DNA of 64,000 bases from Candidatus Eiseniibacteriota bacterium (GTDB taxonomy: Bacteria; Eisenbacteria; RBG-16-71-46; SZUA-252), in assembly GCA_031370645.1 (NCBI GenBank), contig JANMQV010000152.1, positions 16,144-80,143 on the forward strand. Direction: 5' to 3'. Each line of letters opens with the position of its first letter. Within the stretch, counting starts at the first letter, position 1. The notes beneath the pieces were generated by a model. The model made no database searches. It had not been told where the DNA came from and saw nothing but the letters and a program-made list of their open reading frames with translations. Both the position numbers and the translations under genes were made by a program. Positions 32,173 to 52,985 of this stretch are shown one piece after another.

Positions 32173-33218
32173 CGCCGCGCTGGGGCGAGTTCTTCAAGCG
32201 CTACAAACTTCTCCTCGTGGGGGTGAAGATCGGGCTCTCCCTCGCGCTCTTCGCCTACGTCGTGGCGAAGGTTTCGCCCGGAAACGTCTGGGCGGTGGTC
32301 CGCCACGCCAATCCCACCTATCTCGGCGCCGCGGCGGCGCTCTTCGTCTTCTCGAATCTGGTCGGTTCGTGGCTCTGGGCGAGGCTCCTGCGCGCGCAGG
32401 GGGTGAACATCCCGTATCGAAACGCGGCCGCTTACTATTTCGTCGGCCTCTTCTTCAACAATTTCCTCCCGTCGAACATCGGCGGCGACATCGCGCGGAT
32501 CAGCGACGCCTCGAAGCACGCGACGAACGTCAGTTCGGTGTTCTCCGCCACGCTCATGGATCGGCTCCTCGGCGTCGTTTCGATCGCGCTCCTCGCCGTC
32601 ATCGCGTCGTTCGCCTCGCTCGATCGGTTCCACCTCTACGCCATCTACGGCGGAATCGTGCTCGTCTTCGTCACCTCGCTCGCGCTCTTTCTCAGCATTT
32701 TCCACCGCGGGGTGTTGAAGGCGTTCGAGTGGCCGTTCCGTGTGCTGGGGCTCCGAAAGGTAGAGGAGGGGATCGGACGCCTGCTCGACGACCTCCACGG
32801 GTTCCGGAACGAGAAGGCGGCGCTCCGGGCGGCGTTCCTGGCCAGCTCGCTCGTGCAGATCAGCCGGATCTATGTCCATTACCTGGTTGGCCTTTCCCTG
32901 GGAGTCCAGCTCGCGGCGGGGTACTATTTCCTCTTCGTGCCCGTTTTGGCCGCCCTGGTCTCTCTTCCGATTTCTATGAACGGACTCGGGATCCGGGAGG
33001 GGGCGTCGGTGGTTCTATTTCAGATGGCCGGGCTGACGCGGGAGCAAGCGTTCACGATCCCGTTCGTCACCTATCTCATGTCGGTGTTCATCAGCCTTCT
33101 CGGCGGTTTCATTTTCGTCACGCGGTCGCCTCGTCGCGCCTTGGCTCGGAAACTCGAAGCGAGACGGGAGAAGCGGGCGGAGAAAGCCGCCTCCATCGGT
33201 AGGGAGGACTCTCGGTGA
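32169..33218 (+). CDS. flippase-like membrane protein (lysylphosphatidylglycerol-synthase TM-region family, UPF0104)
   Basis: Eight or so TM helices with the conserved NFLPSNIGGDIAR-type motif of the LPG_synthase_TM / TIGR00374 family. These often sit next to Dpm1/GtrB-like GT2s in glycosylation loci. Confidence 0.55.
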   Translation: MTPRWGEFFKRYKLLLVGVKIGLSLALFAYVVAKVSPGNVWAVVRHANPTYLGAAAALFVFSNLVGSWLWARLLRAQGVNIPYRNAAAYYFVGLFFNNFLPSNIGGDIARISDASKHATNVSSVFSATLMDRLLGVVSIALLAVIASFASLDRFHLYAIYGGIVLVFVTSLALFLSIFHRGVLKAFEWPFRVLGLRKVEEGIGRLLDDLHGFRNEKAALRAAFLASSLVQISRIYVHYLVGLSLGVQLAAGYYFLFVPVLAALVSLPISMNGLGIREGASVVLFQMAGLTREQAFTIPFVTYLMSVFISLLGGFIFVTRSPRRALARKLEARREKRAEKAASIGREDSR

Positions 33219-35809
33219 ATTCATGGAAGCGCTGGCACGCGATCTTCGGCGCGCTCGCCTTGGGCGTACCGCTCTTCGTGTTCCTTCGCACGCTCACGGT
33301 CACGGTCCCGTTCTGGGATTCGGGCGAGTACATCGCCACATCCCGCATTCTCGGCCTTCCGCACCCGCCGGGGAACCCGGTCTACACGATGCTCGGGCGC
33401 ATGCTGACGCTCATCCCCATCGCGAGCATCGCCCAGCGCGTGAACTTCATGAGCGCCCTCGCGTCGGCGCTGACCTGCTTCTTCACCTATCTTGTCGTGG
33501 TCCGCGCGCTTCGCCGCACGTTCGAGGATCGCTTCGAGTCGGGCGCCGCCTGGGTCGCCTGCTTGGTTGGAGGATTGACGGCCGCGTTCTTCGTCGCGTT
33601 CTCCTCGTCGTTCTGGGACAGCGCCATCGAAGCCGAAGTCTATTCGCTCTCCTCGGCGCTCATCGCCTTTACGATGTGGCTCGCGTTCCGCTGGTGGGAC
33701 CGCCTCGATCAGCCGGGGAACGACAAACTGCTGATCCTCGTCACGTACATTCTCGGAGTCTCGACGGGCGTTCACCTCGGCACGATCCTCGTGGCGCCGG
33801 GGCTCCTGTTCCTTCTCGCGCTCATCCGTCCGACGATCTTCACGTCGGGCCGTTTCTGGGCTTCCGCGCTCCTCCTCCTCGGCACCCTCGCGTTTCTCGG
33901 GATCACGGAGGCTTCGGGCTGGAGTCCGCCGCTTCTGGTGCTCATCCTCCTCATCGGGGGTCTCGCCGCCTTTCTCATCTCGCGACGCGACCGGCTGGTG
34001 CGCGACAACCTGGCCACCTGGTGGGCGCTCGCGGTGCTGGTCGGATTTTCGGTGCAGCTCTTCCTTCTCATCCGTAGCCAGCAGATGCCGGCCATCAACG
34101 AGGGAAGCCCCTCCACGTTCGAGGCCTGGAAGGACTATCTCCTCCGGAAGCAGTACGGTCCGTCGAATCCGTTCGATCGCCGCGCCGACCTCTGGTTCCA
34201 GATCACGCACATGTACTTCCGCTACGTCGGGGAGCAGTGGAAGATCATCAACAAGATCGGCTCCCTGGACATCCAATCGTTCTGGGTTCGCCTCGTGAAC
34301 ATGCTTCCCTTCGCTCTCGCGTTCCTCGGGGCGTGGTGGAACGCCCAGCGCGACAAGAAGACCTTCTGGTTCTTCGTCGCGCAAAACGTCATCATGGCGC
34401 CCTTCCTGATTTTCTATCTCAATTTCACCGACCACGAGGTGCGGGAGCGCGACTACTTCTTCACCAACTCCTACCACTTCATCGCCATCTGGATCGGAAT
34501 GGGGGCCGCCGCGCTCCTCCATTCGGTCGTGGAGGCGATCGCGCCGGCGGGAGCGAGGGCCGCGCCGCCGCCGCGCCCGGCCGCCGCCCTGGCGGAAGGG
34601 GCGGGGAGTTCGGAGCCGGGGCCGCTTCCGGCCGCGCCGGCTGCCGCCTGGATCGTCGGCATCGCGCTCATCGGCTTCTCGGCGCTGCCGGCTCGCGCCG
34701 GATGGTTCGAGCACGACCGGTCGAATTTCTGGATCGCGCAGAACTACGCCTACAACATGCTCGCCCCGCTCGCGCCGAACTCGATCGTCATGACGAATGG
34801 CGACAACGACACCTTCCCGCTCTGGTACATCCAGGAGGTGGAAGGATTCCGGAAAGACATCCGAGTCGTGAACATGAGCCTCCTGAACACGCCCTGGTAC
34901 ATCCTCCAGTTGAAGAATCTCGAGCCGAAGGTCCCCTTCAGTTACACCGACGCGGAGATCGAGAAGCTCTACCCCTACCTCGACGAAAAATCGGGGCAGG
35001 TCGTCTGGGTGAAGGACCTCGCCGTGAAGAACATGATGGCGGCGAACGCCTGGAATAAGCCCGTCTACTTGGCCGTCACCGTTCCCGATCAGATGGGGAT
35101 GGACAAGCAACTGACGCTCGAGGGGCTGGTCTATCGGATCTCCCCCCAGCCCGTCACGAACGAGATCGATCTCAACCGGACCATGAAGAACCTCTACGAG
35201 GTCTTCAGATATCGCGGGCTCCTTGACGCGAATCGGAATTTCGACAAGGCGGTGTATAAGGACGATAACGCGATGCGCCTGGTGCAGAACTATTCGGCGG
35301 CGCACGTCCAGGTGGCCTATCAGCTCCAGTCGCAGCAGCGCCCGGCGGAGGCGATCAAGGTTCTCGAGGACGCGCGGAAGATCTCTCCCGACTTCCCGGG
35401 TCTGCTCGAATATCTGGGCCGTCTCTACGACCAGACCGGGAATCCAGCGAAGGCGGAGGCGTACTACCGCGAGGGCCTGGAGCGATTCCCGAGTTCGCCC
35501 GAGTTCTACTTCCATCTCGGCACGCTCGCCTACCGGCAAGGCAAAGTCGACGAGGCCGTGCAACTCCTCCGCCGCGCGACCGAGCTGAGCCAGCAATACT
35601 TCGATTGGTACAGCGCGCTCTTCACGGTCCTCTGGCAGACGGGGCAGAAGGCGGAAGCGATCGATGTCCTCCGCAACTGGCTCCGCGCCCATCCCGAGGA
35701 TCAGCAGACGTCGGAGGAGATCAAGCGCTTCGAGGATTCGCTCCGGACCGCTCCGCCGGGATTGCAGGACAAGTTGCGAACCTCCGGCTCGCGGGCCTTG
35801 GTTCGTTGA
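33215..35809 (+). CDS. DUF2723/TMEM260-like GT-C-fold membrane glycosyltransferase candidate with C-terminal TPR repeats
   Basis: Polytopic N-terminal half with the FWDSGEYIATS...LGLPHPPGNPVY signature recalled for DUF2723 (PMT/ArnT-related GT-C). A roughly 40-aa Ala/Pro linker. The C-terminal soluble region has TPR repeats (AEAYYREGLERFPSSPEFYFHLGTLAYRQGKVDEAVQLLRRA). Confidence 0.55.
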   Translation: MNSWKRWHAIFGALALGVPLFVFLRTLTVTVPFWDSGEYIATSRILGLPHPPGNPVYTMLGRMLTLIPIASIAQRVNFMSALASALTCFFTYLVVVRALRRTFEDRFESGAAWVACLVGGLTAAFFVAFSSSFWDSAIEAEVYSLSSALIAFTMWLAFRWWDRLDQPGNDKLLILVTYILGVSTGVHLGTILVAPGLLFLLALIRPTIFTSGRFWASALLLLGTLAFLGITEASGWSPPLLVLILLIGGLAAFLISRRDRLVRDNLATWWALAVLVGFSVQLFLLIRSQQMPAINEGSPSTFEAWKDYLLRKQYGPSNPFDRRADLWFQITHMYFRYVGEQWKIINKIGSLDIQSFWVRLVNMLPFALAFLGAWWNAQRDKKTFWFFVAQNVIMAPFLIFYLNFTDHEVRERDYFFTNSYHFIAIWIGMGAAALLHSVVEAIAPAGARAAPPPRPAAALAEGAGSSEPGPLPAAPAAAWIVGIALIGFSALPARAGWFEHDRSNFWIAQNYAYNMLAPLAPNSIVMTNGDNDTFPLWYIQEVEGFRKDIRVVNMSLLNTPWYILQLKNLEPKVPFSYTDAEIEKLYPYLDEKSGQVVWVKDLAVKNMMAANAWNKPVYLAVTVPDQMGMDKQLTLEGLVYRISPQPVTNEIDLNRTMKNLYEVFRYRGLLDANRNFDKAVYKDDNAMRLVQNYSAAHVQVAYQLQSQQRPAEAIKVLEDARKISPDFPGLLEYLGRLYDQTGNPAKAEAYYREGLERFPSSPEFYFHLGTLAYRQGKVDEAVQLLRRATELSQQYFDWYSALFTVLWQTGQKAEAIDVLRNWLRAHPEDQQTSEEIKRFEDSLRTAPPGLQDKLRTSGSRALVR

Positions 35810-35816
35810 GAGGCCG

Positions 35817-41041: not shown

Positions 41042-42211
41042 GTGATTGCGGAGGCGGCCGTGCGTCCCACGTGGGATGTCGTATGGGTGAGTGACATCCC
41101 GTGGTCGGCCCTCTGGCAACGGCCGCAGCAGTTGGCGACCCGCTTCCCCGAGGACGTCCGGATCCTATTCGTCGAGCCATGGACGCTCGGCGCGCCCCCT
41201 GCATGGTCTCCCGAGGAAGTGGCGCCGCGGATCGCGCGGATTTCATTCCCGTTTCTGCCGCTCCATGCCCGGGATCTCCGGCTTCGCCGCTTGGCGTATC
41301 GCCTCGGCTCGTCGGCTCCCGCCACCTCGATGCTCTTCGCCGCGCAGCGACTCTGGGCGAGGCGTTGGCGCGGCTTCGGCCGGCAGGGCGCCCGTCGCCT
41401 CGTGCTGGCACAGAATTTCATGGCCACGCCGTTCCTCGAAGCGTGGCGTCCCGATCGGATCGTCTACGACATGATCGACGCGCCCCTTCACTTCGCTCCG
41501 GTGCCGCCGCGGCTCGTGCCGCAGTGGCAAGCGCTGCTCTCCCGCGCCGATCGGGTGATCGTCACGTCGGAGGCATTGGTGTCGCTCGCGAAGTCGGGAG
41601 GTGCGACGGCGCCGGCCTTGATCGGGAACGGCGTCGAGGCGGACCGATTCGATCCTAACCGCGTGACGCCGGCCGTGCTCCCTGGGAATCCCGAAGCGCC
41701 GGCGTTCGGATATGTTGGCTCGCTACATTCGTGGTTCGATCTCGAGTTGGTGGCGGCGCTCGCCGAAGCGATGCCCGAATCGCGCGTGGTGCTGGTCGGC
41801 CCCGCGCCCCCCGAGACGGCCGCGGCGTTGGAGCGGCTGATGACCTCTCGGCCGAATCTTCATTGGATGGGACCGCGGCCCTACGTGGAAGTGCCCGCGC
41901 TCGTTCGGGCCTTCCGCGTCGGCCTCATCCCGTTTCGCCGCACCCCGCTCACGGAGGCGGTGAATCCCGTGAAGCTCTACGAGTACGCCGCGGCAGGCGT
42001 TCCGACGGTGACAACTCGATTCAGTGACGAAGTCGAGGGTTGGAGCGACGCGGCGCGCGTGGCCGACGGCCCCGAAGCATTTCTCAGCGCGTGCCGGGAC
42101 GCGGCGGCCGCACCGCCCGATGTCGCGTCGCTTCGCGCGTTCGCGAGGCGGCACGATTGGGAGGCCATTGCCGCGCGGTTCGTCGCGGCCAGTCTGGAGG
42201 AGGCGGCGTGA
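41042..42211 (+). CDS. glycosyltransferase (GT-B, group 1-like)
   Basis: C-terminal half has group-1 GT features (GYVGSLHSWFDLELV, PVKLYEYAAAGVPTV). N-terminal half is divergent. Confidence 0.6.
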   Translation: MIAEAAVRPTWDVVWVSDIPWSALWQRPQQLATRFPEDVRILFVEPWTLGAPPAWSPEEVAPRIARISFPFLPLHARDLRLRRLAYRLGSSAPATSMLFAAQRLWARRWRGFGRQGARRLVLAQNFMATPFLEAWRPDRIVYDMIDAPLHFAPVPPRLVPQWQALLSRADRVIVTSEALVSLAKSGGATAPALIGNGVEADRFDPNRVTPAVLPGNPEAPAFGYVGSLHSWFDLELVAALAEAMPESRVVLVGPAPPETAAALERLMTSRPNLHWMGPRPYVEVPALVRAFRVGLIPFRRTPLTEAVNPVKLYEYAAAGVPTVTTRFSDEVEGWSDAARVADGPEAFLSACRDAAAAPPDVASLRAFARRHDWEAIAARFVAASLEEAA

Positions 42212-44628
42212 AGCAGTCGTTGGGCTGGCGGTGGGCGTACGGAGCGACGGCGCTGCTCGTGCTTGTCTTCTTCTACCCGATCGTCTTCGGCAAGGTCTTC
42301 CTCTCGCCGGACTCGGTCGCCCCCGCGGGCTTCTCGAAGATCGCCTTGGAAGCCCTCACGCAGCGCGGCGTCTACGCGCTTTGGAATCCATATCACTTCC
42401 TCGGAATGCCGTCGTTCGGGAGTCTCGCCCACGTCCCGTTCGTCTATCCGCCCGACGTCATCTTTGGATTTCTGAACCAGAATCTCGGATTCCCCGATCT
42501 CACGTGGCTCATCGCGCATTACCTCCTCCTCGCCGTGAGCATGGTGGCGCTCTTGCGGGCGCTCGGTGCGGGCCCGGAAGCGGCCGCCATCGGGGCCACG
42601 ACGCTCGCGCTGACTCCGAATCTCGTGGCGGTCGGGGCGTTCGGACACGGCAGCCAGATCATGACGGCCGCTTACCTGCCGCTCCTCTTTCTCCTCTACG
42701 ATCGCTACGCGCGGCGAGGCTCGCTCCTCGCGCTCTCCGCCTTCGCGCTCGCCGCCGCGTTCCAACTGCTGCGCGGACACGTGCAGATCGTCTTCTACAG
42801 CTGGTTCGCGCTCGGGCTCTACGCGCTATTCCTCTCCGTGGCGGCCTTCCGCGAGGGACGGCGGCCGGACGGGATTCGTGCCCTGGTGGGGCTCGCGACG
42901 GGCCTGGGGCTCGCCTTCGGGATGAGCGCCTTCCTCTACCTGCCCATTCGCGACTACGCCGAACACTCGGTGCGAAGCGCCGGCGCGGGCGGGGGCGCCG
43001 GATTCGAGTACGCCACCTCGTGGTCGTTCGCCCCGCGGGAGATGCTCACCTTCCTCATTCCTTCCATGTTCGGTTTCGGCGGGCAAACCTACTGGGGAGC
43101 CATGCCGTTCACCGACTATCCGAATTACATGGGGATCATTCCGTTCGCGCTCGCGCTCTACGCCGCCGTCACGCTCCGGGGGACGATGCGCGCGTTTCTC
43201 GTCACGCTCGCCGGCGTTTCGCTCCTCATCTCGTTCGGCAAGCACTTCGCGCCGCTCTACGCGCTCCTCTACGACCACCTGCCGTTCTTCAACAAGTTCC
43301 GCGTGCCGGTGATGATTCTCGTCCTCGTCCAATTCGCCACGGCGGCGCTCGCGGCGTTGGGGATCGACCGGGCGATGAGGATGCCCGAGGCGGGGAAGCG
43401 CACCGGGGCCGCCGCGGCCGCGGCGACGACCGCCGCGGCGGGGCCGTGGTGGCGCGCCTGCGCCATGGCCATCGGCGGAGCCATCGGCGGGATCGCGCTC
43501 TTCCAGGCGTTTCGCCCGTCGCTCGAAGCGGCAGCCGCGTCGAGTCGCGCGAACATGAATCAGGGGCTCGCGCGTCTCGCGCTCGACATGGCCTCGATCG
43601 ATCTCCTCAAGTCGGGGATCCTGCTCGCGTTCGGCTTCGCCGCGATCGCGCTCTACCGGTCCGGCCGGGTGGGGAAGAGCGTGGCGGCGGCAGCGCTCCT
43701 CTTGATCACCGCGGGCGACCTCTGGACCCTCGACCGGCGGATCATGGATCCGCAGGTCGGGACGAAGCGCGAGTACGCCGACTACTTCGCCGAGTCGCCG
43801 GAGGTGACCTTCCTTCGCGGCGATTCGACGCAGTTTCGCGTCCTCCCGACGGCGTGGAACGACGCGCGCCTCGCCTCCTTCGGTGTGGCGTCGGTGCTCG
43901 GCTACCATCCGGCGAAACCGCGGCTCTACCAAGCCTTCATCGATACGATCGGGATCAACAGCATGGAAACGCTCCAAATGCTGAACACAAAGTACGTCTT
44001 GTCCGATCGGTACTTTCCCGCCGACATGCAGGGGCTCCGGCTCCGGTTCGACGGAAAGGTGAAGACGTACGAGGTGGACGGGGCGTTGCCGCGGGCGTAC
44101 GTGGTCCATCATCTCTACCCGGTTCGCGACGAGTCGATGGCGCTCGCCGCCATTCGCGCGCACGGGGTCGATCCGCGGCTGGAGGCGGTCTGGACGAAGC
44201 CCGACCCCCTCCCGACCCTCGCCAACCCGTCGCTTCCCGATTCGGTGCGGCTCCTCCTCTTCGATTTCAACGAGGTGGAATACAGCGTCTCCACGAACGC
44301 GTCCGGTCTTCTCGTGACGATCGATCAGTGGGATCCCGACTGGAGCGTCACGGTGGACGGGAAGGCAGCCGACCTGGAGCGCGTGAATTACCTGATGCGC
44401 GGCGTGTTGATCCCCGAGGGGGTCCACATCGTTCGGTTCCACTACATGCCGCGAGCGCTCGAGGCGGGCATCCGAATCTCGGCGGCCTCCCTGGCGCTCA
44501 CGATCTTGCTGGCGGGATTGGGGCTCGTGACGGGGCGCCGGCGCCGCGCGATGCCGCCTGCCGCCACGGACGATTCGCCCGCGGCGGCGCACGCGTCCGC
44601 GGAGAAGCGAAAGGGGAAACGCGCGTGA
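42208..44628 (+). CDS. YfhO-like polytopic membrane protein (GT-C-fold glycosyltransferase candidate)
   Basis: About 807 aa: roughly 14 TM helices in the N-terminal 450 aa, then a large soluble C-terminal domain and a final TM helix. Overall architecture is that of the YfhO family. A Dpm1-like GT2 gene follows immediately (GTGA overlap). Confidence 0.5.
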   Translation: MKQSLGWRWAYGATALLVLVFFYPIVFGKVFLSPDSVAPAGFSKIALEALTQRGVYALWNPYHFLGMPSFGSLAHVPFVYPPDVIFGFLNQNLGFPDLTWLIAHYLLLAVSMVALLRALGAGPEAAAIGATTLALTPNLVAVGAFGHGSQIMTAAYLPLLFLLYDRYARRGSLLALSAFALAAAFQLLRGHVQIVFYSWFALGLYALFLSVAAFREGRRPDGIRALVGLATGLGLAFGMSAFLYLPIRDYAEHSVRSAGAGGGAGFEYATSWSFAPREMLTFLIPSMFGFGGQTYWGAMPFTDYPNYMGIIPFALALYAAVTLRGTMRAFLVTLAGVSLLISFGKHFAPLYALLYDHLPFFNKFRVPVMILVLVQFATAALAALGIDRAMRMPEAGKRTGAAAAAATTAAAGPWWRACAMAIGGAIGGIALFQAFRPSLEAAAASSRANMNQGLARLALDMASIDLLKSGILLAFGFAAIALYRSGRVGKSVAAAALLLITAGDLWTLDRRIMDPQVGTKREYADYFAESPEVTFLRGDSTQFRVLPTAWNDARLASFGVASVLGYHPAKPRLYQAFIDTIGINSMETLQMLNTKYVLSDRYFPADMQGLRLRFDGKVKTYEVDGALPRAYVVHHLYPVRDESMALAAIRAHGVDPRLEAVWTKPDPLPTLANPSLPDSVRLLLFDFNEVEYSVSTNASGLLVTIDQWDPDWSVTVDGKAADLERVNYLMRGVLIPEGVHIVRFHYMPRALEAGIRISAASLALTILLAGLGLVTGRRRRAMPPAATDDSPAAAHASAEKRKGKRA

Positions 44629-45338
44629 AAGCGCTCGTCATCATCCCGACCTACAACGAACGGGAGAACCTCACCGAGCTCCTTCGCCAGATCTTCGCGC
44701 TCGGCATCGGCCTCGAGGTTCTGATCGTGGACGACAACTCGCCGGACCGCACCGGGCAGTTGGCGGACGAGATGGCCGCCGCCGACCCGCACATCCACGT
44801 GCTCCATCGCGCGGGGAAGATGGGACTCGGTTCGGCCTACGTGGCGGGGTTTCGCTACGCCCTCGATCGCGACTACGAGGCGATCTTCGAGATGGACGCC
44901 GACTTCTCGCACAGTCCCGAGAGCCTGCCGGTGTTCCTGAAGGAACTCGAGTCGGCCGACCTCGTCCTCGGTTCTCGCTATCTGCACGGCGTGACGGTCG
45001 TGAACTGGCCGCTCAGCCGCCTCATTCTTTCCTACGCGGCGAATGTCTACAGCCGCGTCATCACGGGCATGAACATCAAGGACGCCACCGGCGGCTTCAA
45101 ATGCTTCCGGCGCCAAGTGCTCGAAGCGATCGATTGGAGTCGCGTGAAATCGGACGGCTACGGATTCCAGATCGAGATCAACTTCAAGGCGTTCCGGAAG
45201 GGATTCCGCATCAAGGAGATTCCGATCCTCTTCGTCGACCGGCGCGCCGGGGAGTCGAAGATGTCGCGGAAGATCGTATGGGAGGCCGCCTACATGGTTT
45301 GGCGCCTGCGGGTCCTCGACCTCATCGGGGCGCTGTAG
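44625..45338 (+). CDS. polyprenol-monophosphate mannose/sugar synthase (DPM1-like GT2)
   Basis: VIIPTYNEREN, VDDNSPDRTG and the FEMDADFSH DxD region are close to the Dpm1/Ppm1 family. A soluble form without a TM tail. Confidence 0.8.
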   Translation: MKALVIIPTYNERENLTELLRQIFALGIGLEVLIVDDNSPDRTGQLADEMAAADPHIHVLHRAGKMGLGSAYVAGFRYALDRDYEAIFEMDADFSHSPESLPVFLKELESADLVLGSRYLHGVTVVNWPLSRLILSYAANVYSRVITGMNIKDATGGFKCFRRQVLEAIDWSRVKSDGYGFQIEINFKAFRKGFRIKEIPILFVDRRAGESKMSRKIVWEAAYMVWRLRVLDLIGAL

Positions 45339-45349
45339 CCCGCGCGCCC

Positions 45350-47302
45350 ATGGGCGTCTCCCTCGTCGTCGTCCACTACCGCACCCGGGAGCCGCTCGCT
45401 CGCCTTCTGGCGTCGCTTCGCACCGCGCGCCCGGCTCCCGTGCGCGAGCTCATCATCGTGAACAACTCGGGCGAGCCGCTCGACGACCTGGTCGCGGGCT
45501 CCGGTCTTCCGACGCGTGTTCTCTCGCCGGGGAAGAATCTTGGATACGCGGGGGGCGTGAACCTCGGCATCCGCGCGGCGACCGAGGAGGATGTGCTGAT
45601 CCTGAACCCCGACATCCAGGTGACGCCGGGGTCGGTGGAGGCGCTCGTCCTCTGCGCCGAGCAGCGGCCGCGCGCCGGACTCGTGGCCCCGAAGCTCGTC
45701 TTCCCGGACGGAACGCTTCAGCTTTCCGTCCGGCGCTTCTACAATGCGAAAACACTCCTCCTCCGCCGGCTCCCACTGGGACCGATGGCGGAGCGGAGTC
45801 GAATCGTCCGCGACCACTTGATGGCCGATTGGGATCACGAGGAGTCGCGCCCCGTCGACTGGGCGCTCGGCGCCGCCCTCTTCGCGCGGCGGCGTGCCAT
45901 GCGGGACGTCGGGCTCATGGACGAGCGCTACTTCCTCTACTTCGAAGACGTCGATTGGTGCGAGCGGATGTGGCGCCACGGCTTCGAAGTGGTCTACTGC
46001 GCCGAGTCGCGCATGGTGCACGAGCACCAACGCGCCAGCGCCCGTCTCGAACCGCGGTCGTGGAAGGCCCATGCCGCGGGACTCCTCCGATTCGCGGAAA
46101 AGTGGAGTGCCGTCCTTTACGCCGTGAGCCAATACCGCCGCCGCATCGTGCAGGGCGTCGCTCTCGCGGGCGACCTGATCGCCGTCTCCGCCGCGTTCCT
46201 GGCGGCGTACGGCTTTCGCCTGCTCCTCGATCCGTGGTTCGAGAAGCCGGTCTTTCCGCTTCCGAACTACCGCGGTCTCTTCGTCTTCGCCCTCGCCATG
46301 ACCATTGCCTCCCTCGCCTGGAACGGACTCTATCGCCGTCTCTCGTTCACGGACGGAATCGATCGCGCGTTTTCGCTCGGGCGCGCCGTCGTGCAGGCGG
46401 GACTCCTCGTCATGGCGGCGACGTTCTTCTTCCAGACGCCCCGATTCTCGCGCGTCCTCGTCCTCCTCCTGGGGCCGCTCTGTTTCGGAATGCTTCTCGT
46501 CTCTCGCGCCGCGGTGGAGCGGCTCGGCGCCGGGGCGCGGCGACACGGTTTCGCCTTCCGCCGCGTGCTCCTCCTCGGGAGCGGCGAAGCGGCGGCGCGC
46601 GCGCGCGCGGCGCTCGAGGAAGCACGGGGCGAAGGGTTCGAGCCGCTTCGCGCCGAGTACTCGGGTCCCGAAGGGGAGACGCCGGAGGCAGCCGCGGCGA
46701 GGCTTCGGACTCTCGTCGCGACGGAACGAATCCAGATCGTCCTCCTCGTTCCCGACGAGCTGGAGCTTCCGCATCTCCTCGCCGTCGGCGCGGCCCTCCG
46801 CGAGTGCGGCGCGGCCATCTGGTGGGCCGGCCCGGCCGCGCTCTTGGCCCCGCTCGGCGCCGAGTCGCGGCTCGGCCCGCTTGACGCCGTGCTCCTCCAC
46901 ACTCCCTCGCGCGGACTCGGTCCGCGCACGCGGAAGCGAGTGAGCGATCTCTTCCTTTCGTTCTTGGTGGCGCCGTGGCGCTGGGGTGGGCTCCGCGCCT
47001 ATCTCGCCGCGCACGAGGAGCCGCTCCGTCCCGCCGAAGCGTGGCGCCAAGTGTGGAGCGGAGAACGCTCCTGGGTAGGCCGGAGCCGGTACGAAGTCGA
47101 TCGCTGGGCCGGCATACCGTCGTGGGCGCGGCTCGCGCTCCAAACGCTTCGCCCCGGGGTCGTCTCGCCCGCGCTCTCGAGCAAGAACGGCGCCGATCGC
47201 ACCGCGCGCTTGGAGTCCGAGCTCGCCTATCTCTCTCGATTCTCGATGGCGGAGGACCTGCGGCTCTTCCTTCGCGCGACGCGCGGGCAGGGAACCCGAT
47301 GA
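45350..47302 (+). CDS. fusion protein: N-terminal GT2 (rhamnosyltransferase-like) + polytopic region with degenerate polyprenyl-glycosylphosphotransferase (WbaP-like) features
   Basis: Residues 1-250 form a complete GT2 domain (VVVHYRT, NNSG, NLGYAGGVN, YFEDVDWCERM). Then come TM helices and a CoA-binding-like segment arranged as in the WbaP N-terminus. The C-terminus keeps only fragments of the Bac_transf catalytic domain. Confidence 0.6.
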   Translation: MGVSLVVVHYRTREPLARLLASLRTARPAPVRELIIVNNSGEPLDDLVAGSGLPTRVLSPGKNLGYAGGVNLGIRAATEEDVLILNPDIQVTPGSVEALVLCAEQRPRAGLVAPKLVFPDGTLQLSVRRFYNAKTLLLRRLPLGPMAERSRIVRDHLMADWDHEESRPVDWALGAALFARRRAMRDVGLMDERYFLYFEDVDWCERMWRHGFEVVYCAESRMVHEHQRASARLEPRSWKAHAAGLLRFAEKWSAVLYAVSQYRRRIVQGVALAGDLIAVSAAFLAAYGFRLLLDPWFEKPVFPLPNYRGLFVFALAMTIASLAWNGLYRRLSFTDGIDRAFSLGRAVVQAGLLVMAATFFFQTPRFSRVLVLLLGPLCFGMLLVSRAAVERLGAGARRHGFAFRRVLLLGSGEAAARARAALEEARGEGFEPLRAEYSGPEGETPEAAAARLRTLVATERIQIVLLVPDELELPHLLAVGAALRECGAAIWWAGPAALLAPLGAESRLGPLDAVLLHTPSRGLGPRTRKRVSDLFLSFLVAPWRWGGLRAYLAAHEEPLRPAEAWRQVWSGERSWVGRSRYEVDRWAGIPSWARLALQTLRPGVVSPALSSKNGADRTARLESELAYLSRFSMAEDLRLFLRATRGQGTR

Positions 47303-49500
47303 GGCGCTCCGTCGTGGCGGCATGGGCGCTCGTGCTCGTGGCGATCTCGATCGTTCCGTCCGCCGCCGAGAGCGCGACCCGGGTGTTTATCGTGAATCAC
47401 GTCGCGTCGAACGACATCCGCGGAGCGGCGCCGTGGGGCGCGTCCCTGGCGCTCGCCACAAACGGCGGGCTCGTCTTCGCCGACACGGCAACCGGGGGCA
47501 CCTCGAAAGTCCTTCGCCGAAGCGGCGGGCTCGCGTCGAACAACCTCATGGCGATCGCCGCCAGTCCCGCCGGCGCCCTCTGGATCGGCACCGCCGATCT
47601 CGGCCTCTCGCGGTACCGGCCCGACGGGACGTTCCCTCGAACGCTCACGTCGTTTGACGGACTCCCGAGCGATCGCGTGCAGGCGCTCCTCCGATCGGGG
47701 GACAGCGTCTGGGTCGCGACGAGCGGCGGCGTCGCCCTCTTCGCCGAGAACCCGGCCAACGGCCAGATCGCGCTCCGACGCTCCGATTCGAAGGCGAGCA
47801 CCGGGGGCGCGTTGGTGAGCGACGACGTGACGTCGTTCGCGGTCTGGAACGACACGCTCTGGTGCGGCACGAACGCGGGGCTCTCGATCTTCGCCTCCGG
47901 AGTCTGGAGCGCGCGAAGTTCCATCGTCTCCGAGCGAGTGCAGGCGCTCCTGGTCGAGCGCGACACGCTCTGGGTCGGAACGAAGACGGGACTTCGCGCC
48001 TACGCCGGTGGAGCCGTCGCGTCGCGCGGGCTGGCGATCGAGACGCTCGCGCTGGCGGCCATTCCCGGCGGCGTCGGGCGCGGAACCACCATCGGCCCTT
48101 ACCTCGAGTCGCCCGACGGCCTCGAGACATCGCTCGGGCTCGCCGGGCTTCCAATCGCGCGCGTCCAAGTGATGACCGCGACCGGCTCCTCGCGCGTGGT
48201 GGCGGGGACCGCGACGGGCCTCGCGCGGCGCGTCGAGGGCGCGACCCCCTGGGAGCCGATCCGGAGCGCCGGCCCCGAGTGGAACGGCGGCTCCCGCGTC
48301 TCGGCGGGAGGAGGAAACGTTTGGGTGACGCTCGGGAACGCGGTCCCGCCCGGATTGGGTATCGGGAGCGTCATGCGCTACGACGGGACGTCGTGGTCGA
48401 TCCTTACCAGCGCCTCGACGGGCGGCAATTTACAGGATGCGGGCGCCATCGGAGTCCTGGCGGCGAGGGACGGCCGGCTCTGGGTCGGGCACTGCTGTTC
48501 GGGCTCGCTCGGGCCCTCGCGCCCTCGCGCCGATCGCTGGGATCCGGGCGCCGACGTCTGGGATCGCCCCGCCGCCTATAACATCATCGCGCTCGCGCAG
48601 GCGCCCTCCGGCCGCGTCTTCGCCGCGGGCGTCGAATACGAGAACGGCCTCTATCTCCTCGACGGGACGACGGCCGCGCTGCTCGATTCCCTCACGCCCG
48701 GGAACACGAACTCCGGGCTGAGCCGAAACAATCTCCGCGACGTCGCGTTCGATCCGTCGGGTCGCGCCTGGATCGCGACGGTCGACAACGGCGTCGATCG
48801 CTGGAACGGAAACGGCACCGACGATCACGCCGACGACGGCTGGACGCACTTCGCGGGCATCGGCTTCCCGAGTCTCCAGACCACGGCGATCGCCGTCGTC
48901 GCCGGCAACGACGCGTGGGTCGGGACGCGAGGCGGAGCGGTTCGAATTGCGAACGACGCGGTCGACCTCTTGGCCACGTCGCGCGCCAACAGCGCCATCG
49001 GCGGCGCGGAGGTGAACGACCTCGCGGTGGACGACGACCATGCCGTTTGGATCGCCACCGCCGGCGGATTGACGCGGATCTCCCCCTCCGGGCAGATCGA
49101 GCGATTCGGCGCAGACGACGGGCTCGCGGACGAAGACGTGCTGGCGCTCTCGTGGGACGGCGCACGCGAGATCCTCTGGGCGGTCACCGCCGGAGGGGTT
49201 TCGGAGATTCACCCCGCCCTCTCCACGCGCGCGTCGTTCGACGACGGGAGCTACGTCTATCCCAATCCCGCGACCGCGGCGAGCGCGCCGATTCGGCTGG
49301 GCGGCATCTCGGGCGAGATTCGCGGCGAGATCCGAGATCTCTCGGGAACGCGCATTCGTTCCTTTCACGCGAACCCCGTCGCCACCGCCGTCTGGGATCT
49401 CCGCGACGAGCAGGGATCGATCGTGGCTCCGGGAATCTATCTCGTGGTGCTCCGTCAGGGCGACCTGACGCGCGTGCTCCGCGTGGCGGTCACGCGATGA
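47299..49500 (+). CDS. secreted beta-propeller protein (two-component-regulator-propeller / Reg_prop repeats) with T9SS-type C-terminal sorting domain
   Basis: Signal peptide. Repeated LW(I/V)GT..GL motifs (LWIGTADLGLSRY, VWVATSGGVALF, LWCGTNAGLSIF, LWVGTKTGLRAY, VWIATAGGLTRI). The last roughly 90 aa (YVYPNPATAAS...GIYLVVLRQGDLTRVLRVAVTR) resemble a T9SS CTD. Confidence 0.55.
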   Translation: MRRSVVAAWALVLVAISIVPSAAESATRVFIVNHVASNDIRGAAPWGASLALATNGGLVFADTATGGTSKVLRRSGGLASNNLMAIAASPAGALWIGTADLGLSRYRPDGTFPRTLTSFDGLPSDRVQALLRSGDSVWVATSGGVALFAENPANGQIALRRSDSKASTGGALVSDDVTSFAVWNDTLWCGTNAGLSIFASGVWSARSSIVSERVQALLVERDTLWVGTKTGLRAYAGGAVASRGLAIETLALAAIPGGVGRGTTIGPYLESPDGLETSLGLAGLPIARVQVMTATGSSRVVAGTATGLARRVEGATPWEPIRSAGPEWNGGSRVSAGGGNVWVTLGNAVPPGLGIGSVMRYDGTSWSILTSASTGGNLQDAGAIGVLAARDGRLWVGHCCSGSLGPSRPRADRWDPGADVWDRPAAYNIIALAQAPSGRVFAAGVEYENGLYLLDGTTAALLDSLTPGNTNSGLSRNNLRDVAFDPSGRAWIATVDNGVDRWNGNGTDDHADDGWTHFAGIGFPSLQTTAIAVVAGNDAWVGTRGGAVRIANDAVDLLATSRANSAIGGAEVNDLAVDDDHAVWIATAGGLTRISPSGQIERFGADDGLADEDVLALSWDGAREILWAVTAGGVSEIHPALSTRASFDDGSYVYPNPATAASAPIRLGGISGEIRGEIRDLSGTRIRSFHANPVATAVWDLRDEQGSIVAPGIYLVVLRQGDLTRVLRVAVTR

Positions 49501-49525
49501 CGCCGCGCGCGCTCTCCGACTCGCG

Positions 49526-50500
49526 ATGAAATTCGAGTCGCCGCTCGTCCTCGTTTCGCCTCCCGATCGCGAGCGCTGGGACGCGCTCGTCGCGGGCGCG
49601 CCGGGGGCGAGCTTCATCCACACACCGGCGTGGGCCAAACTCTGGACCGACGAATGGCCGGACTCCCGCTGGGAAGCGCTCGTGGTGGAGGAAGGGGGCG
49701 CCTACGCCGCGGGGCTCGGAGCGATCGTTCGGCGCCGCGGGCCGTTTCGCACGATCGACGCCATGCCCTTCGCCACCTACGGCGGGCCACTCGTCCGAAA
49801 GGGACACCCCGACCCCCGCGGCCTCTCGACGGCGCTCCTCGAAGGATTCGCCCGATGGATCGGAGGCCCCTTCGTGCTCCGCGCTTCGCTGGCGTGGGAG
49901 CGGGGCGATCGCGACGCGTTTCCCGACCGCCTGCCTCCGCTCGAGTCGTTCACGCACGTGCTGCCGCTGTCGGCGGATTACGAGGAGGTCGCGTCCCACT
50001 TCTCTCCCTCCACGCGACGGCTCGTTCGGCAGGCCGACGAGAGCGGCCTTTCGATCGAAACGGCCGACACGATCGAAAAGATCGGCGCCTTCTACGGCCT
50101 GGCCGTGGAAACCGTGCGGCGCCGCGGCGGCACGCCGAAGCCGCGATCGCTCTACGAACGGATCTTTCACGATCTCGTCTCGAAGGGATCGGGACGCTAT
50201 CACCTCGTCCGTCACGGCGAGAACGTGGTGGCGGGGAGCCTCCATTTTTTCCACGAGGGCGTGGCGACGAACTGGCTCCCGGTTTCGAGCGAGGCGGCGT
50301 GGCCGCTTCGGCCGAATAATTTCCTCATCGCCTCGATCCTCGAAACGCTGAGCGCCGCGGGCTACCTGGAATACAACTTCGGCGCCTCGCCCCCCGACGC
50401 CTCGGGTCTCATCCGCTACAAAGAGGGGTGGGGCGCGCGGAGCCGCCCCGTCCTTCTCGCGGGGCGCCGCTCGGGACTCCACCGGCGCTTCCGCCCGTAG
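49526..50500 (+). CDS. FemAB-like / GNAT-fold acyltransferase (peptidoglycan-bridge-formation fold; often seen next to EPS loci)
   Basis: Length and duplicated GNAT-like fold arrangement (NWLPVSSEAAWPLRPNNFLIASILE). No closer family motif confirmed. Confidence 0.45.
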   Translation: MKFESPLVLVSPPDRERWDALVAGAPGASFIHTPAWAKLWTDEWPDSRWEALVVEEGGAYAAGLGAIVRRRGPFRTIDAMPFATYGGPLVRKGHPDPRGLSTALLEGFARWIGGPFVLRASLAWERGDRDAFPDRLPPLESFTHVLPLSADYEEVASHFSPSTRRLVRQADESGLSIETADTIEKIGAFYGLAVETVRRRGGTPKPRSLYERIFHDLVSKGSGRYHLVRHGENVVAGSLHFFHEGVATNWLPVSSEAAWPLRPNNFLIASILETLSAAGYLEYNFGASPPDASGLIRYKEGWGARSRPVLLAGRRSGLHRRFRP

Positions 50501-50508
50501 GCCGACGC

Positions 50509-51651
50509 GTGCGGATCCTCCTCCTCGCGCACGCACCGTCGATCCACACGCAGCGCTGGGCGCGGTCGCTCGGGGCGCGGGGGCACGACGTGCGGCTTCT
50601 CTCGGTGACGCCGGCGCCGAGCGCGGCCGTCCCGGGCGAGCCGATCGGTTGGCGCGGCGCGCCGCTTCCGTTTCTCCGCTATGCCGCCGCGCGGGGAAAG
50701 GTGCGGCGCGTGCTCGAGTCGTGGAAGCCGGACGCGACGGTCGCGCACTTTCTTCCGAATTACGGGTTCCTCGCCATGCTCTCCGGCGCGCATCCCTTCG
50801 TGCTGACGGCGTGGGGCTCCGATCTCCTCGTGAACGCCCGCCGCTCGCCGTTTCACGAGGCGCGCGCTCGCGCGGTGCTGGGGCGCGCCTCGCTGATCCA
50901 CGTCGATTCCGAGAATCTCGCCGTCGCCGCGCGGGCGCTTGGCGCCGAGCCCCACCGCCTCTGGATGCGCCCGTGGGGCGTGGAGGTGGACGCCCTCGCG
51001 CCCGCGTCGCCCTGGAATGAGCGACGCGTGCGCGCCGGCGCGATCCGCGTCCTCTGGAATCGGATGCTCGAACCGCTCTACGATCCCGAGACCTTGCTTC
51101 GGGCGCTCGAGGCGCTCCGACGGAGCGGCCGCGATGTACGAGCCACGATCGCGGGGGACGGTCCGCTCCGTCCCGCGCTCGAGGTCGCTGCTGCGCGTCT
51201 CGGCCTCGCCGCGAACGTCCGCTTCACCGGGCGGGTGGACGAAGCGGCGATGCGCGCCCTCTACCGGGAACATGAGTTCTACGTCTCCATGTCCCGATCC
51301 GATTCCACTTCGCAGTCGCTCCTCGAGGCGATGGCGTCGGGGCTCTATCCGATTGTGAGCGACATCGCGGGGAACCTCCCCTGGGTGCGGGGCGCCGCGG
51401 CCGCGCGCGAAGCGGCGGGCGATGCGGGGCGCCTCGTGCCTTGCGGCGACGACCGTGCGTTGGCGGCGGCGATCATCGCGGCGGCCGACGATCCCGATGG
51501 CGCGGAACGAATCGCTCGAGGGATCGCGCGCGTTCGCGCGGAGGCGGACTGGAGAGAGACCGTGTCGCAATTCGAGGCGCGGCTCGCCCTGCTTTCGCGC
51601 GACGCCCGAAACGGCGCGGGAGCAGGACCCGGGGGAGCGAGCCGGGCATGA
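50509..51651 (+). CDS. glycosyltransferase family 4
   Basis: GT-B fold. C-terminal GT4 motif (SRSDSTSQSLLEAMASGLYPIVSDIAGN). Confidence 0.7.
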   Translation: MRILLLAHAPSIHTQRWARSLGARGHDVRLLSVTPAPSAAVPGEPIGWRGAPLPFLRYAAARGKVRRVLESWKPDATVAHFLPNYGFLAMLSGAHPFVLTAWGSDLLVNARRSPFHEARARAVLGRASLIHVDSENLAVAARALGAEPHRLWMRPWGVEVDALAPASPWNERRVRAGAIRVLWNRMLEPLYDPETLLRALEALRRSGRDVRATIAGDGPLRPALEVAAARLGLAANVRFTGRVDEAAMRALYREHEFYVSMSRSDSTSQSLLEAMASGLYPIVSDIAGNLPWVRGAAAAREAAGDAGRLVPCGDDRALAAAIIAAADDPDGAERIARGIARVRAEADWRETVSQFEARLALLSRDARNGAGAGPGGASRA

Positions 51652-52985
51652 AACGGCTTCTCGTCCTCGCCTACTTCTTTCCGCCCCTCGGCGGCGGCGG
51701 ATGCCAGCGGACGCTCAAACTCGTTCGCTACCTCGAACCGAACGGATGGGTCTCCACCGTGGTGACGGTGAAGGAACCCGACTACTGGATCCTCGACCCG
51801 ACGCTCCTCGAGGAGATTCCCGCTTCGTGCGAGGTGGCCCGCGTGAGCGCGCTGACTTCGCAGCGTCTCCTCCGCCTCCTTGGGGGTGCGGGCGTTCAAC
51901 TGGAGGAGCGACAGGGGACTCGGCGCGCGGGAGCCTTCCGCGCTCTGAGACGCCTGCAGCAATTCGTCGCGATCCCCGACGGCTATCGCCCCTGGGCGCG
52001 CGCCGCCGAGCGCGCCGCCGCTGCGCGCCTCGCGAAGGGAGGCATCGACGCGCTCTGGACCACGTCGTCGCCCGAGAGCGCGCATCTCGCCGGCCTCGCG
52101 CTGAAACGGAAATTCGCGCTCCCGTGGATCGCCGACTTTCGTGATCCGTGGGTCGGGCGCGTCACCTATGCGCCTCCCACCGCGTGGCACGATCGCCGGC
52201 ACCGCGCGCTCGAACGTGAAGTCGTCGCCACCGCCGATCGCGTCACTGTCGTGAGCGAAGCCATGGCGGCGCGGTTCCGGGAGCGCTATCCCGCGCTCGG
52301 CCCCGCGCACTTCGTCGTGCTTCCGAACGGATACGACCCCGACGACTGGGCGCGTGTCGCGCGACTCCCGTTGTCGCTCGAGCCGGACGCGGCTCGTGAG
52401 GCCGACGCGCGGCGTTTCGTCGTGCTTCATGCCGGCCAGCTGGCGCATCGCCCCACCGTCGGCGACCTGCTCGCCGCCGTGGCCCGCCTCGTGGAGGAAT
52501 CGCCCGCACGCCGGAAGACGCTTCGGCTCCGTTTCATGGGTGGAAACGAAGGGCTCGACGCGGCGACCGTGGCGCGGAAGGGGCTCTCGGAGGTCGTGGA
52601 TCTTCTGCCGTCGCGTCCCCACCTCGAGGCGATGGCGGCCATGAGGCGGGCGAATCTCCTTGTCCTCTTGGGCCATGGCGGAGAGGCCGATTCCCAACTC
52701 TACACGGGGAAAATCTACGAATACCTCACGAGTGGAACGCCGCTTGTCGGCGTCCTCGGCCCAGGCCCGGCCAGCGACCTCATCTCCCGAGCGGGAGGCG
52801 GCCGCGCGTGTCTTCCAGGGGACGTAGATGGCGTCTGTTCCGCGATTCGATCCCCCCTGGAGGCCTGGGAACGACATGAAAAGCGGCAGGACCTCCCACT
52901 TCCAGCGATCGCCGTCGAGTGGGAGCGCCGAACCATGGCCCGGCAGGCCGCCGAACTCCTCGATTCAGTCCATTCCAAGCGCTAG
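51648..52985 (+). CDS. glycosyltransferase family 4
   Basis: N-terminal FFPPLGGGGCQRT motif typical of GT4 enzymes acting on membrane-bound acceptors. C-terminal GT-B Rossmann domain. Confidence 0.7.
   Translation: MKRLLVLAYFFPPLGGGGCQRTLKLVRYLEPNGWVSTVVTVKEPDYWILDPTLLEEIPASCEVARVSALTSQRLLRLLGGAGVQLEERQGTRRAGAFRALRRLQQFVAIPDGYRPWARAAERAAAARLAKGGIDALWTTSSPESAHLAGLALKRKFALPWIADFRDPWVGRVTYAPPTAWHDRRHRALEREVVATADRVTVVSEAMAARFRERYPALGPAHFVVLPNGYDPDDWARVARLPLSLEPDAAREADARRFVVLHAGQLAHRPTVGDLLAAVARLVEESPARRKTLRLRFMGGNEGLDAATVARKGLSEVVDLLPSRPHLEAMAAMRRANLLVLLGHGGEADSQLYTGKIYEYLTSGTPLVGVLGPGPASDLISRAGGGRACLPGDVDGVCSAIRSPLEAWERHEKRQDLPLPAIAVEWERRTMARQAAELLDSVHSKR

Follow-up and report, generated by a model that had tools for sequence, protein, structure and literature searches.

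To my knowledge, the YfhO family of membrane glycosyltransferases, enzymes of the C fold (GT-C), has been characterised experimentally in Firmicutes only. In the CsbB-GtcA-YfhO systems of Bacillus, Staphylococcus and Listeria, a cytoplasmic GT2 enzyme makes a polyprenol-phosphate sugar and a YfhO GT-C uses it to modify lipoteichoic acid (LTA) or wall teichoic acid (WTA) (PMC5836110, PMC8035078). The GtrB/PgtC2 and PgfS/PgfM1 systems of streptococci employ YfhO-family GT-Cs with undecaprenyl-phosphate monosaccharides (PMC12041528), and the acceptors known for the family are LTA, WTA (in Listeria) and Ser/Thr-rich regions of streptococcal envelope proteins (PMC8035078, PMC12041528). This article concerns two overlapping genes in 64,000 nucleotides from a Candidatus Eiseniibacteriota bacterium (assembly GCA_031370645.1, contig JANMQV010000152.1, positions 16,144 to 80,143), called the window here. 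One gene, ORF A, encodes a YfhO-like GT-C, and the other, ORF B, a Dpm1-like GT2 enzyme. I propose, with confidence somewhat better than even, that the pair is a periplasmic mannosylation module that uses polyprenol-phosphate mannose.

The likeness to CsbB-GtcA-YfhO is considerable: adjacent genes (as on a Priestia plasmid described below), an Asp in the first periplasmic loop of the GT-C, a terminal beta-sandwich and a final transmembrane (TM) helix. The differences are equally plain. The window's synthase is of the TM-less DPM1 type with GDP-mannose as its predicted donor, whereas CsbB and GtrB have two TM helices and use UDP-sugars; no GtrA flippase is seen, the host appears to be a diderm without teichoic acids, and the GT-C, a member of a remote subfamily, is detected by the Pfam model at its C-terminus only. 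The streptococcal systems differ from the window in their sugars (glucose and N-acetylgalactosamine), in their membrane-anchored synthases and in their Firmicutes hosts, and the profile similarity to their GT-Cs is limited to the C-terminal 70 residues.

Another set of relatives lies on the side of the synthase. Actinobacterial Ppm1 is described as a polyprenol-phosphate mannose synthase serving extracytoplasmic glycosyltransferases (PMC5982138). Its product feeds periplasmic GT-Cs by which proteins, glycolipids and lipoglycans are mannosylated. Its catalytic domain is of the same DPM1 type, and PGAP gives relatives of ORF B the Ppm1 name. The actinobacterial GT-Cs that draw on this lipid include Pmt and PimE; they are of other families (PMT, PimE/GT87 and others), the phylum differs, and I know of no case in which their genes are translationally coupled to ppm1. 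ORF B also has its catalytic domain and key residues in common with the human DPM1-DPM2-DPM3 enzyme (type II) and with the dolichol-phosphate mannose synthase of Pyrococcus furiosus (PfDPMS; type III; PMC5526996). Human DPM1, like ORF B, is without TM helices.

A conserved and overlapping gene pair

ORF A and ORF B, as translated from the window, both begin with GTG, and the stop of the first overlaps the start of the second as GTGA at 44625-44628. A GT4 gene upstream is joined to ORF A by another GTGA overlap (42208-42211), and the next gene downstream begins with ATG 11 nt past the stop of ORF B. Purine-rich Shine-Dalgarno-like sequences, read from the sequence, lie 6-14 nt 5' of both GTG starts, that of ORF A being GGAGGAGG. 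The two genes are the core of a tightly packed operon.

How far is this arrangement conserved? With one genome scanned for each GTDB species, over 585 GT-C relatives were found, and the best 80 loci were fetched (L001-L080), of which 76 are informative in that they hold sequence downstream of the GT-C gene. A Dpm1-like gene, 58-92% identical to ORF B, lies directly 3' of the YfhO-like gene in 68 of the 76. The order GT4, YfhO-like, Dpm1-like recurs, and the 68 loci are nearly all labelled Eisenbacteria. Close homologues of both proteins come almost entirely from metagenome-assembled genomes that bear the label Candidatus Eisenbacteria or Candidatus Eiseniibacteriota. The YfhO-like and Dpm1-like genes overlap in 58 of the 68 loci, mostly at -4 or -1 nt, and are separated by 0-20 nt in eight more. 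A GT4 gene precedes the YfhO-like gene in 62 loci, with a -4 overlap at the junction of the two in 28 of 64 and a distance of at most 43 nt in the others. Synteny and coupling hold in two Eisenbacteria clades, whose GT-Cs average 66% (clade A) and 39% (the more distant clade B) identity to the window protein, and the identities of the triad proteins co-vary across loci (r = 0.98).

A skeptic might reply that glycosyltransferase genes are densely packed in this locus, with short overlaps in many places, and that the adjacency is an accident of operon packing between functionally unlinked proteins. I find this scarcely credible. The same order in 68 of 76 loci, with overlap in 58 of the 68, is not what chance would leave, and both are still seen where the GT-C is 38-42% identical. 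A YfhO-like GT-C translationally coupled to a Dpm1-like synthase is what an earlier, sequence-only reading of this DNA had claimed, and the overlap, both family assignments and the conserved synteny bear it out. It took the unit to be a pair, without mention of the overlap between the GT4 gene and ORF A, and a pair there is, within what is actually a triad with the upstream GT4 inside a larger conserved cluster.

The exceptions are as instructive as the rule. The eight informative loci without a Dpm1-like gene are all of non-Eisenbacteria types, with GT-C identities of 32-36%. In KSB1, Latescibacterota and unclassified relatives there is no Dpm1-like gene, and in its stead one finds an ArnC-like GT2 that is 45-52% identical to the product of another gene in the window, 36731-37702. 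In a Latescibacterota locus a two-TM GT2 of the ArnC/CsbB type stands directly 3' of the GT-C gene, and in KSB1 the order is ArnC-like, GT4, GT2, Wzx-type flippase, YfhO-like (Latescibacterota and KSB1 examples: L051 5941-9364; L041 1166-8481). The slot adjoining the GT-C is consistently a donor-synthase slot, filled by two different architectures; it looks as though one type of donor synthase has displaced the other in situ. That a lipid-sugar synthase consistently occupies the slot is the strongest reason for regarding ORF B as the source of the donor used by ORF A.

The same exceptions can be turned to a different purpose. With an ArnC-like GT2 accompanying the YfhO-like gene in KSB1, Latescibacterota and unclassified relatives, the window's pairs might be crossed, with the product of 36731-37702 feeding ORF A and ORF B feeding a TMEM260-like, PMT-related GT-C encoded at 33215-35809. 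TMEM260 and PMT enzymes depend on dolichol-phosphate mannose, and the family to which the latter GT-C belongs, PF11028, is described as 'Protein O-mannosyltransferase TMEM260-like', its eukaryotic relatives using that same donor. The distant, roughly 40%-identity Eisenbacteria clade tells otherwise: its 41 loci carry the triad with neither an ArnC-like nor a TMEM260-like gene within 6 kb, and no other polyprenol-phosphate sugar synthase was found there within that distance. Moreover, the TMEM260-like, epimerase and ArnC-like genes form a contiguous block of their own, and it is the YfhO-like and Dpm1-like genes that overlap. I consider crossed pairs quite unlikely.

ORF B, a predicted polyprenol-phosphate mannose synthase

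ORF B matches the GT2 family (PF00535) with 112 bits, and its residues 1-229 match the catalytic domain of PfDPMS (PDB 5mlz) at E 3.4e-38 and 134 bits. This is by a wide margin the nearest solved structure, those of ArnC and GtrB giving at most 52 bits. ORF B was mapped onto the functional residues given in the PfDPMS structure paper (PMC5526996). Conserved are E12, D37 (guanine N1/N2), R62, L68 and the DAD motif (D91-A-D93), with D91 and H96 at mannose O2/O3 and D93 at the metal, as well as R118/R132/S136 (acceptor phosphate) and R206/E210/K212 (acceptor loop, A-loop). The metal-site Q93 of PfDPMS is replaced by Ser, giving DADFSH, a residue that I take to be the same in human DPM1. Thus the soluble Dpm1-like GT2 with intact DAD and Dpm1 motifs that had been claimed stands up to alignment of its catalytic residues.

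ORF B has no TM segment and ends where the TM domain of PfDPMS starts. Since PfDPMS cut to its catalytic domain is still membrane-targeted and fully active (PMC5526996), a TM-less enzyme is plausible by itself. On grounds of architecture a CsbB/GtrB/ArnC type was rejected: enzymes of that type are anchored in the membrane by two TM helices C-terminal to the GT2 domain, and ORF B has none. The earlier description of ORF A and ORF B as a 'CsbB/YfhO-type pair' must then be given up as regards ORF B, the CsbB-like enzyme of the locus being 36731-37702. Relatives of ORF B are named 'polyprenol monophosphomannose synthase' or 'dolichol-phosphate mannosyltransferase' by PGAP and IMG, and a search of the NCBIfam library with ORF B returned no Ppm1-specific model. 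All in all, ORF B is probably a polyprenol-phosphate mannose synthase of the DPM1/Ppm1 type.

Could the pair work as proposed with some other sugar, a different hexose or hexosamine taken from a different nucleotide sugar? ORF B meets no equivalog threshold in NCBIfam, the best models (AglJ, a haloarchaeal dolichol-phosphate hexose transferase and PpgS) each being far below cutoff, and K178 in the donor pocket of PfDPMS aligns, in a gapped region, with G180 of ORF B. On the other side, D37, L68, D91 and H96 are all retained, and the score against a dolichol-phosphate mannose synthase structure far exceeds those against ArnC and GtrB. Another sugar seems to me improbable.

ORF A, a remote member of the YfhO superfamily

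The topology of ORF A is drawn from hydropathy and from an AlphaFold2 (AF2) model built on an alignment of 39 homologues (predicted local distance difference test, pLDDT, 81.8; predicted template modelling score, pTM, 0.82). From a cytoplasmic N-terminus ('N-in'), about 13 TM helices extend over aa 8-516, followed by an extracytoplasmic domain (aa 517-748) with a beta-sandwich at its end, a last TM helix (aa 749-781) and a short cytoplasmic tail, RRRR. The large extracytoplasmic C-terminal domain of the sequence-only reading is there; its roughly 14 N-terminal helices are better counted as 13 plus one terminal anchor, which it missed. The first matches to the model in a Foldseek search of the PDB are all GT-C enzymes (AftD, STT3, AftA, PglB, EmbB and Pmt4), and a GT-C fold is predicted for ORF A. 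When PDB sequences were searched with a profile of the GT-C alignment, the only matches were spurious ones to G-protein-coupled receptors.

The first periplasmic loop (EL1) is long (aa 28-98) and holds an invariant P34-D35. D35, in an S-P-D-S context, is unchanged in the 39 relatives, and a multiple alignment puts Asp in the same column in the YfhO proteins of Listeria (SHD), Priestia (NTD) and Bacteroides (QHD); a motif downstream, W...G-[MG]-[PG], is common to these and the window protein. I infer for D35 a catalytic role, as base. Another conserved loop carries the motif FGFGGxTYWGxMPFTDYPNYMG.

Membership in the family took more effort to establish. The YfhO profile, PF09586, scores ORF A at 35.0 bits, above its gathering cutoff of 28.5, and so passes the check that the sequence-only reading had asked of it, with a match to the last 70 residues only. 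The same C-terminal-only match is seen in the KSB1, Latescibacterota, Marinimicrobia and Bacteroides relatives. In an exhaustive phmmer search with just the N-terminal module as query, 7,852 cluster representatives passed E ≤ 1e-3, and the most distant among the 150 matches listed showed the C-terminal-only YfhO match once more, with no bridge to canonical YfhO. The bridge came from a tblastn search of plasmid-collection records, which supplied three references. One is the YfhO of Listeria monocytogenes, which sits in the galU/rml WTA region and is taken to be of the Lmo1079 type, needed experimentally for decoration of Listeria WTA with N-acetylglucosamine (PMC8035078). The second belongs to a Priestia plasmid triad, GT2-GtrA-YfhO, and the third is a 'YfhO family protein' of Bacteroides finegoldii.

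The Listeria and Priestia proteins match the full length of PF09586 (403 and 460 bits). The Bacteroides protein, the one orphan 'YfhO family protein' of diderms that was scanned against Pfam, matches it by its C-terminus only; the current model under-represents the diderm subfamily. Comparison of profiles by hhalign does better. Residues 41-261 of the ORF A family are colinear with residues 63-279 of Listeria YfhO (probability 96.4%, E 1.4e-9), the N-terminal module meets a two-sequence canonical YfhO profile with 84.7% probability, and residues 680-765, the beta-sandwich and TM helix, meet residues 770-855 of Priestia YfhO with 95.5%. ORF A as a whole aligns with the B. finegoldii protein at 100% probability (E 2.5e-47, about 24% identity). 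By these comparisons ORF A is a genuine though remote member of the YfhO superfamily, in a large subfamily that is typical of diderms of the Fibrobacterota-Chlorobiota-Bacteroidota (FCB) group and that the Pfam model detects by its C-terminus only. There are also weak NCBIfam matches to PgfM1 and PgfM2. An identity as ArnT, PMT or PMT_2 was rejected, no such Pfam match being found at E ≤ 1, and with it goes the ArnT-like alternative that had been named beforehand as the finding that would undo the YfhO assignment.

The C-terminal domain, modelled separately (pLDDT 91.9), resembles AftD and accessory domains of GH127/GH146 in short stretches of beta-sandwich only. These, and the Foldseek result given below, offer no hint of an acceptor.

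A proposed mannosylation module

The proposal is built on gene structure, on family memberships and on the conservation of catalytic residues, synteny and coupling; from these I infer the rest, namely the GDP-mannose donor, the undecaprenyl phosphate carrier, the flipping step and the acceptor. ORF B, held by amphipathic interface helices to the inner membrane on its cytoplasmic side, would move mannose from GDP-mannose to polyprenol (undecaprenol) phosphate. The lipid-linked mannose would be flipped to the periplasmic face, perhaps by a TIGR00374 flippase-like protein encoded in the window, perhaps by another factor, and ORF A, by means of D35 in EL1, would pass the mannose to an extracytoplasmic acceptor.

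What is that acceptor? The sequence-only reading held that a diderm has no LTA and that something else must accept the sugar. In this it was correct, though the point need cause no surprise: the known acceptors of the family already go beyond LTA, and YfhO-family proteins are widely annotated in diderms, for example in Bacteroidota and Microvirga. I give a little short of an even chance to a glycan or glycolipid built by the co-conserved GT4 and GT2 enzymes (41042-42211, 45350-47302, 50428-52985), and a smaller though still substantial one to Ser/Thr residues of envelope proteins, by analogy with the streptococcal enzymes of the family. The former is slightly likelier because the weak best matches of the co-conserved GT4s (TuaH, GlcNAc-PG synthase and IagA/BgsA) are to lipid- or polymer-directed enzymes.

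A number of observations weigh against this proposal and are best set out together. On the side of ORF A, the PF09586 match is confined to aa 689-758, positions 765-835 of the 835 in the model; the first 520 aa, taken by themselves, have no match in Pfam at E ≤ 1; hhalign ties the protein to canonical YfhO only remotely, at 22% identity; EL1 is modelled with a pLDDT of only 40-60; and the model of the C-terminal domain finds no Foldseek match at E ≤ 1e-3. As for ORF B, it reaches no NCBIfam equivalog cutoff (AglJ, the best, has 69.6 bits against 325), and its sugar is deduced from residue conservation only. No gene of the GDP-mannose pathway was found in the window, nor did any of its scanned ORFs (small ones were not exhaustively scanned) match GtrA or Polysacc_synt (Wzx-type). 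An ArnC-type synthase, of the kind tied to YfhO-like genes elsewhere, lies 5 kb upstream in the window's clade. Finally, the Bacteroidota YfhO homologues examined are orphans with no adjacent synthase, and a 2026 preprint predicts in silico that the Bacteroides YfhO is the missing oligosaccharyltransferase of general O-glycosylation (10.64898/2026.07.27.740950).

This last point deserves to be followed, for the Bacteroidota protein is a full-length homologue of ORF A and shares with it an FCB-type diderm context. If it is a guide, ORF A would be an O-oligosaccharyltransferase acting on periplasmic proteins, its donor an undecaprenyl-diphosphate-linked oligosaccharide preassembled by the locus's cytoplasmic GT4 and GT2 enzymes, and ORF B would do no more than supply mannose for later trimming or extension in the periplasm, or for another GT-C. 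The locus has glycosyltransferases enough for this, six GT4 and three to four GT2, and in KSB1 the Wzx-type flippase gene is directly 5' of the YfhO-like gene. There are three difficulties. The YfhO-family enzymes characterised experimentally all use single sugars linked to a monophosphate (PMC8035078, PMC12041528), not the diphosphate-linked oligosaccharide proposed as donor in Bacteroidota. Profile scans of the window found neither the catalytic domain of an initiating phosphoglycosyltransferase nor Wzx. And the overlap with a gene for a polyprenol-phosphate sugar synthase is kept in the great majority of the loci that have both. The Bacteroidota genes, by comparison, are solitary: the orphan 'YfhO family protein' genes examined (L083 4182-6704 of B. 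finegoldii, with L084 and L085), which come from Bacteroidota and from an alphaproteobacterial Microvirga plasmid, have no such neighbour, those in Bacteroidota standing beside ahcY or unrelated genes, and the preprint likewise notes the proximity to ahcY (10.64898/2026.07.27.740950). An oligosaccharyltransferase in the window has, I believe, poor prospects.

Returning to the mannosylation module, the near-universal overlap of stop and start implies that the two proteins are co-translated in fixed proportion, and possibly that they form a physical complex. No homologue of DPM2 or DPM3 was seen, and in comparison with DPM1-DPM2-DPM3 the only conserved candidate for a membrane partner is the GT-C of the overlapping upstream gene. 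One might therefore imagine a stoichiometric trans-membrane complex in which the GT-C anchors the TM-less synthase in the manner of DPM3 and may also receive or flip the mannolipid, channelling synthesis, translocation and transfer. I consider this unlikely, though less so than the alternatives discussed above. Were it true, the whole FCB-diderm YfhO subfamily would use single sugars linked to a monophosphate, and the oligosaccharyltransferase proposed for the essential Bacteroidota YfhO would need revising. Were just the plain reading true, an uncultured phylum would have gained one more three-component glycosylation system.

Some of this was known. Relatives of both genes already bear the family names ('YfhO family protein' and 'polyprenol monophosphomannose synthase'), and the three-component logic is that of the textbooks. 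The novelty lies in a YfhO-superfamily GT-C hard-wired to a TM-less DPM1-type synthase, where all characterised YfhO systems use membrane-anchored, UDP-sugar-dependent GT2 enzymes; new too are the occurrence of such a pairing in an apparently diderm phylum, the unusually conserved translational coupling and the displacement of one synthase type by another in situ. The Eisenbacteria arrangement is a first genomic clue to the type of donor used by the diderm YfhO subfamily, a lipid-monophosphate sugar and apparently mannose. It raises the idea of a GT-C that anchors its synthase, and the genes needed for direct reconstitution overlap each other.

The surrounding locus

The glycosylation genes form a run of about 22 kb (about 31-53 kb in the window, whose G+C content is about 68%), flanked on one side by a riboflavin/nusB operon (25.4-29.5 kb) and on the other by the dcw cell-division cluster (mraW at 54117, then ftsI, murE, murF, mraY and ftsW). 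Features of the run are collected in Table 1.

Table 1. Features of the glycosylation locus, in window coordinates
Feature	Coordinates	Strand	Evidence
Flippase-like membrane protein (LPG_synthase_TM / TIGR00374)	31881..33218, true start probably near 32170	+	PF03706 143 bits; TIGR00374 78.8 vs cutoff 43.2
TMEM260-like GT-C with C-terminal TPR repeats, ~11-12 TM	33215..35809	+	PF11028 165.7 bits
ArnC/PgfS/CsbB-type GT2, two C-terminal TM helices	36731..37702	+	NCBIfam ArnC 160, PgfS 132 bits, both below cutoffs
GT4 glycosyltransferase, TuaH-like, no TM; first gene of triad	41042..42211	+	Pfam Glyco_trans_1_4; NCBIfam TuaH 90 bits, below cutoff
ORF A, YfhO-superfamily GT-C, 806 aa	42208..44628	+	PF09586, hhalign, AF2/Foldseek, D35 alignment
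ORF B, TM-less DPM1/Ppm1-type GT2, 237 aa, predicted polyprenol-phosphate mannose synthase	44625..45338	+	PF00535, PfDPMS 5mlz, functional residues
GT2 domain + 4-5 TM + CoA_binding_3, 650 aa	45350..47302	+	Like N-terminal half of large polyprenyl-phosphate glycosylphosphotransferases
Secreted double beta-propeller (Reg_prop), signal peptide, C-terminal domain of type IX secretion system (T9SS) type	47296..49500	+	PorZ-like architecture
FemAB / Acetyltransf_6 protein	49526..50500	+	PF13480 68 bits; TIGR03019 51.7 bits, below cutoff
Two GT4 glycosyltransferases, ORF limits 50428-51651 and 51441-52985, true starts uncertain	50428..52985	+	Co-conserved with triad, both Eisenbacteria clades

Upstream of the triad, in the window's own clade, a block at 31881-37702 consists of the genes for the flippase-like protein, the TMEM260-like GT-C, an NAD-dependent epimerase/dehydratase and the ArnC-like GT2. 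The first product is a candidate flippase for polyprenol-phosphate sugars, and the last is, judged by its family, a second polyprenol-phosphate sugar synthase. The sequence-only reading had noticed that the locus holds a second pair of synthase and GT-C, and the ArnC/PgfS-like and TMEM260-like products are that pair. Bacterial enzymes resembling TMEM260-type protein O-mannosyltransferases have, as far as I know, been little studied.

The order downstream of the triad (GT2 fusion, propeller, FemAB and two GT4 genes) is co-conserved with it in both Eisenbacteria clades, with exceptions gene by gene. The gene for the GT2 fusion is conserved in this place in clade A and found in only some loci of clade B. 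Its product covers the first 269 of the 445 positions of the exopolysaccharide (EPS) polyprenyl glycosylphosphotransferase model and does not match the catalytic remainder; I am aware of no description of this combination of domains. Searches of PDB sequences with this protein and with the upstream GT4 were uninformative. A propeller gene is found downstream in 49 loci, its product about 25% identical in clade B, and the FemAB gene in only about a third of the loci.

The propeller protein was not accepted as a firm PorZ: that is its best NCBIfam match but reaches just 70 of the 260 bits required, and in the PDB it comes closest to propellers of Bacteroides hybrid two-component sensors (HTCS). 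Beside it, the FemAB protein has TIGR03019 as its best model, one that VimA of Porphyromonas gingivalis is reported to match (PMC7468200). The P. gingivalis namesakes of these adjacent genes (47296-50500), PorZ and VimA, take part in the attachment of T9SS cargo to anionic lipopolysaccharide. The idea that the locus builds an anchor for T9SS cargo is weakened, since P. gingivalis, where that system was defined, is without YfhO according to the preprint (10.64898/2026.07.27.740950). T9SS-type C-terminal domains were found among the window proteins together with a SurA-like chaperone, and both are consistent with a diderm envelope. A 924-aa protein encoded at 22453-25227 is probably another T9SS cargo: its sole Pfam match is a C-terminal FlgD_ig / T9SS-type sorting domain, and it has weak matches to the C-termini of the PorU and T9SS cargo models.

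Two further observations lie at some distance from the pair. In the dcw cluster, the FtsI-like class B penicillin-binding protein (PBP) at 55524-57614 carries two C-terminal PASTA domains, which are, as far as I know, typical of Gram-positive enzymes of the PBP2x type and unusual in a diderm. At 5255-6895 there is a homologue of BshC, of bacillithiol biosynthesis (PF10079, 278 bits), and the GT4 encoded at 30739-32172, where the glycosylation locus begins, shows partial matches of the MshA/BshA kind. Together these two predicted proteins suggest that Eisenbacteria may make a thiol of the bacillithiol type.

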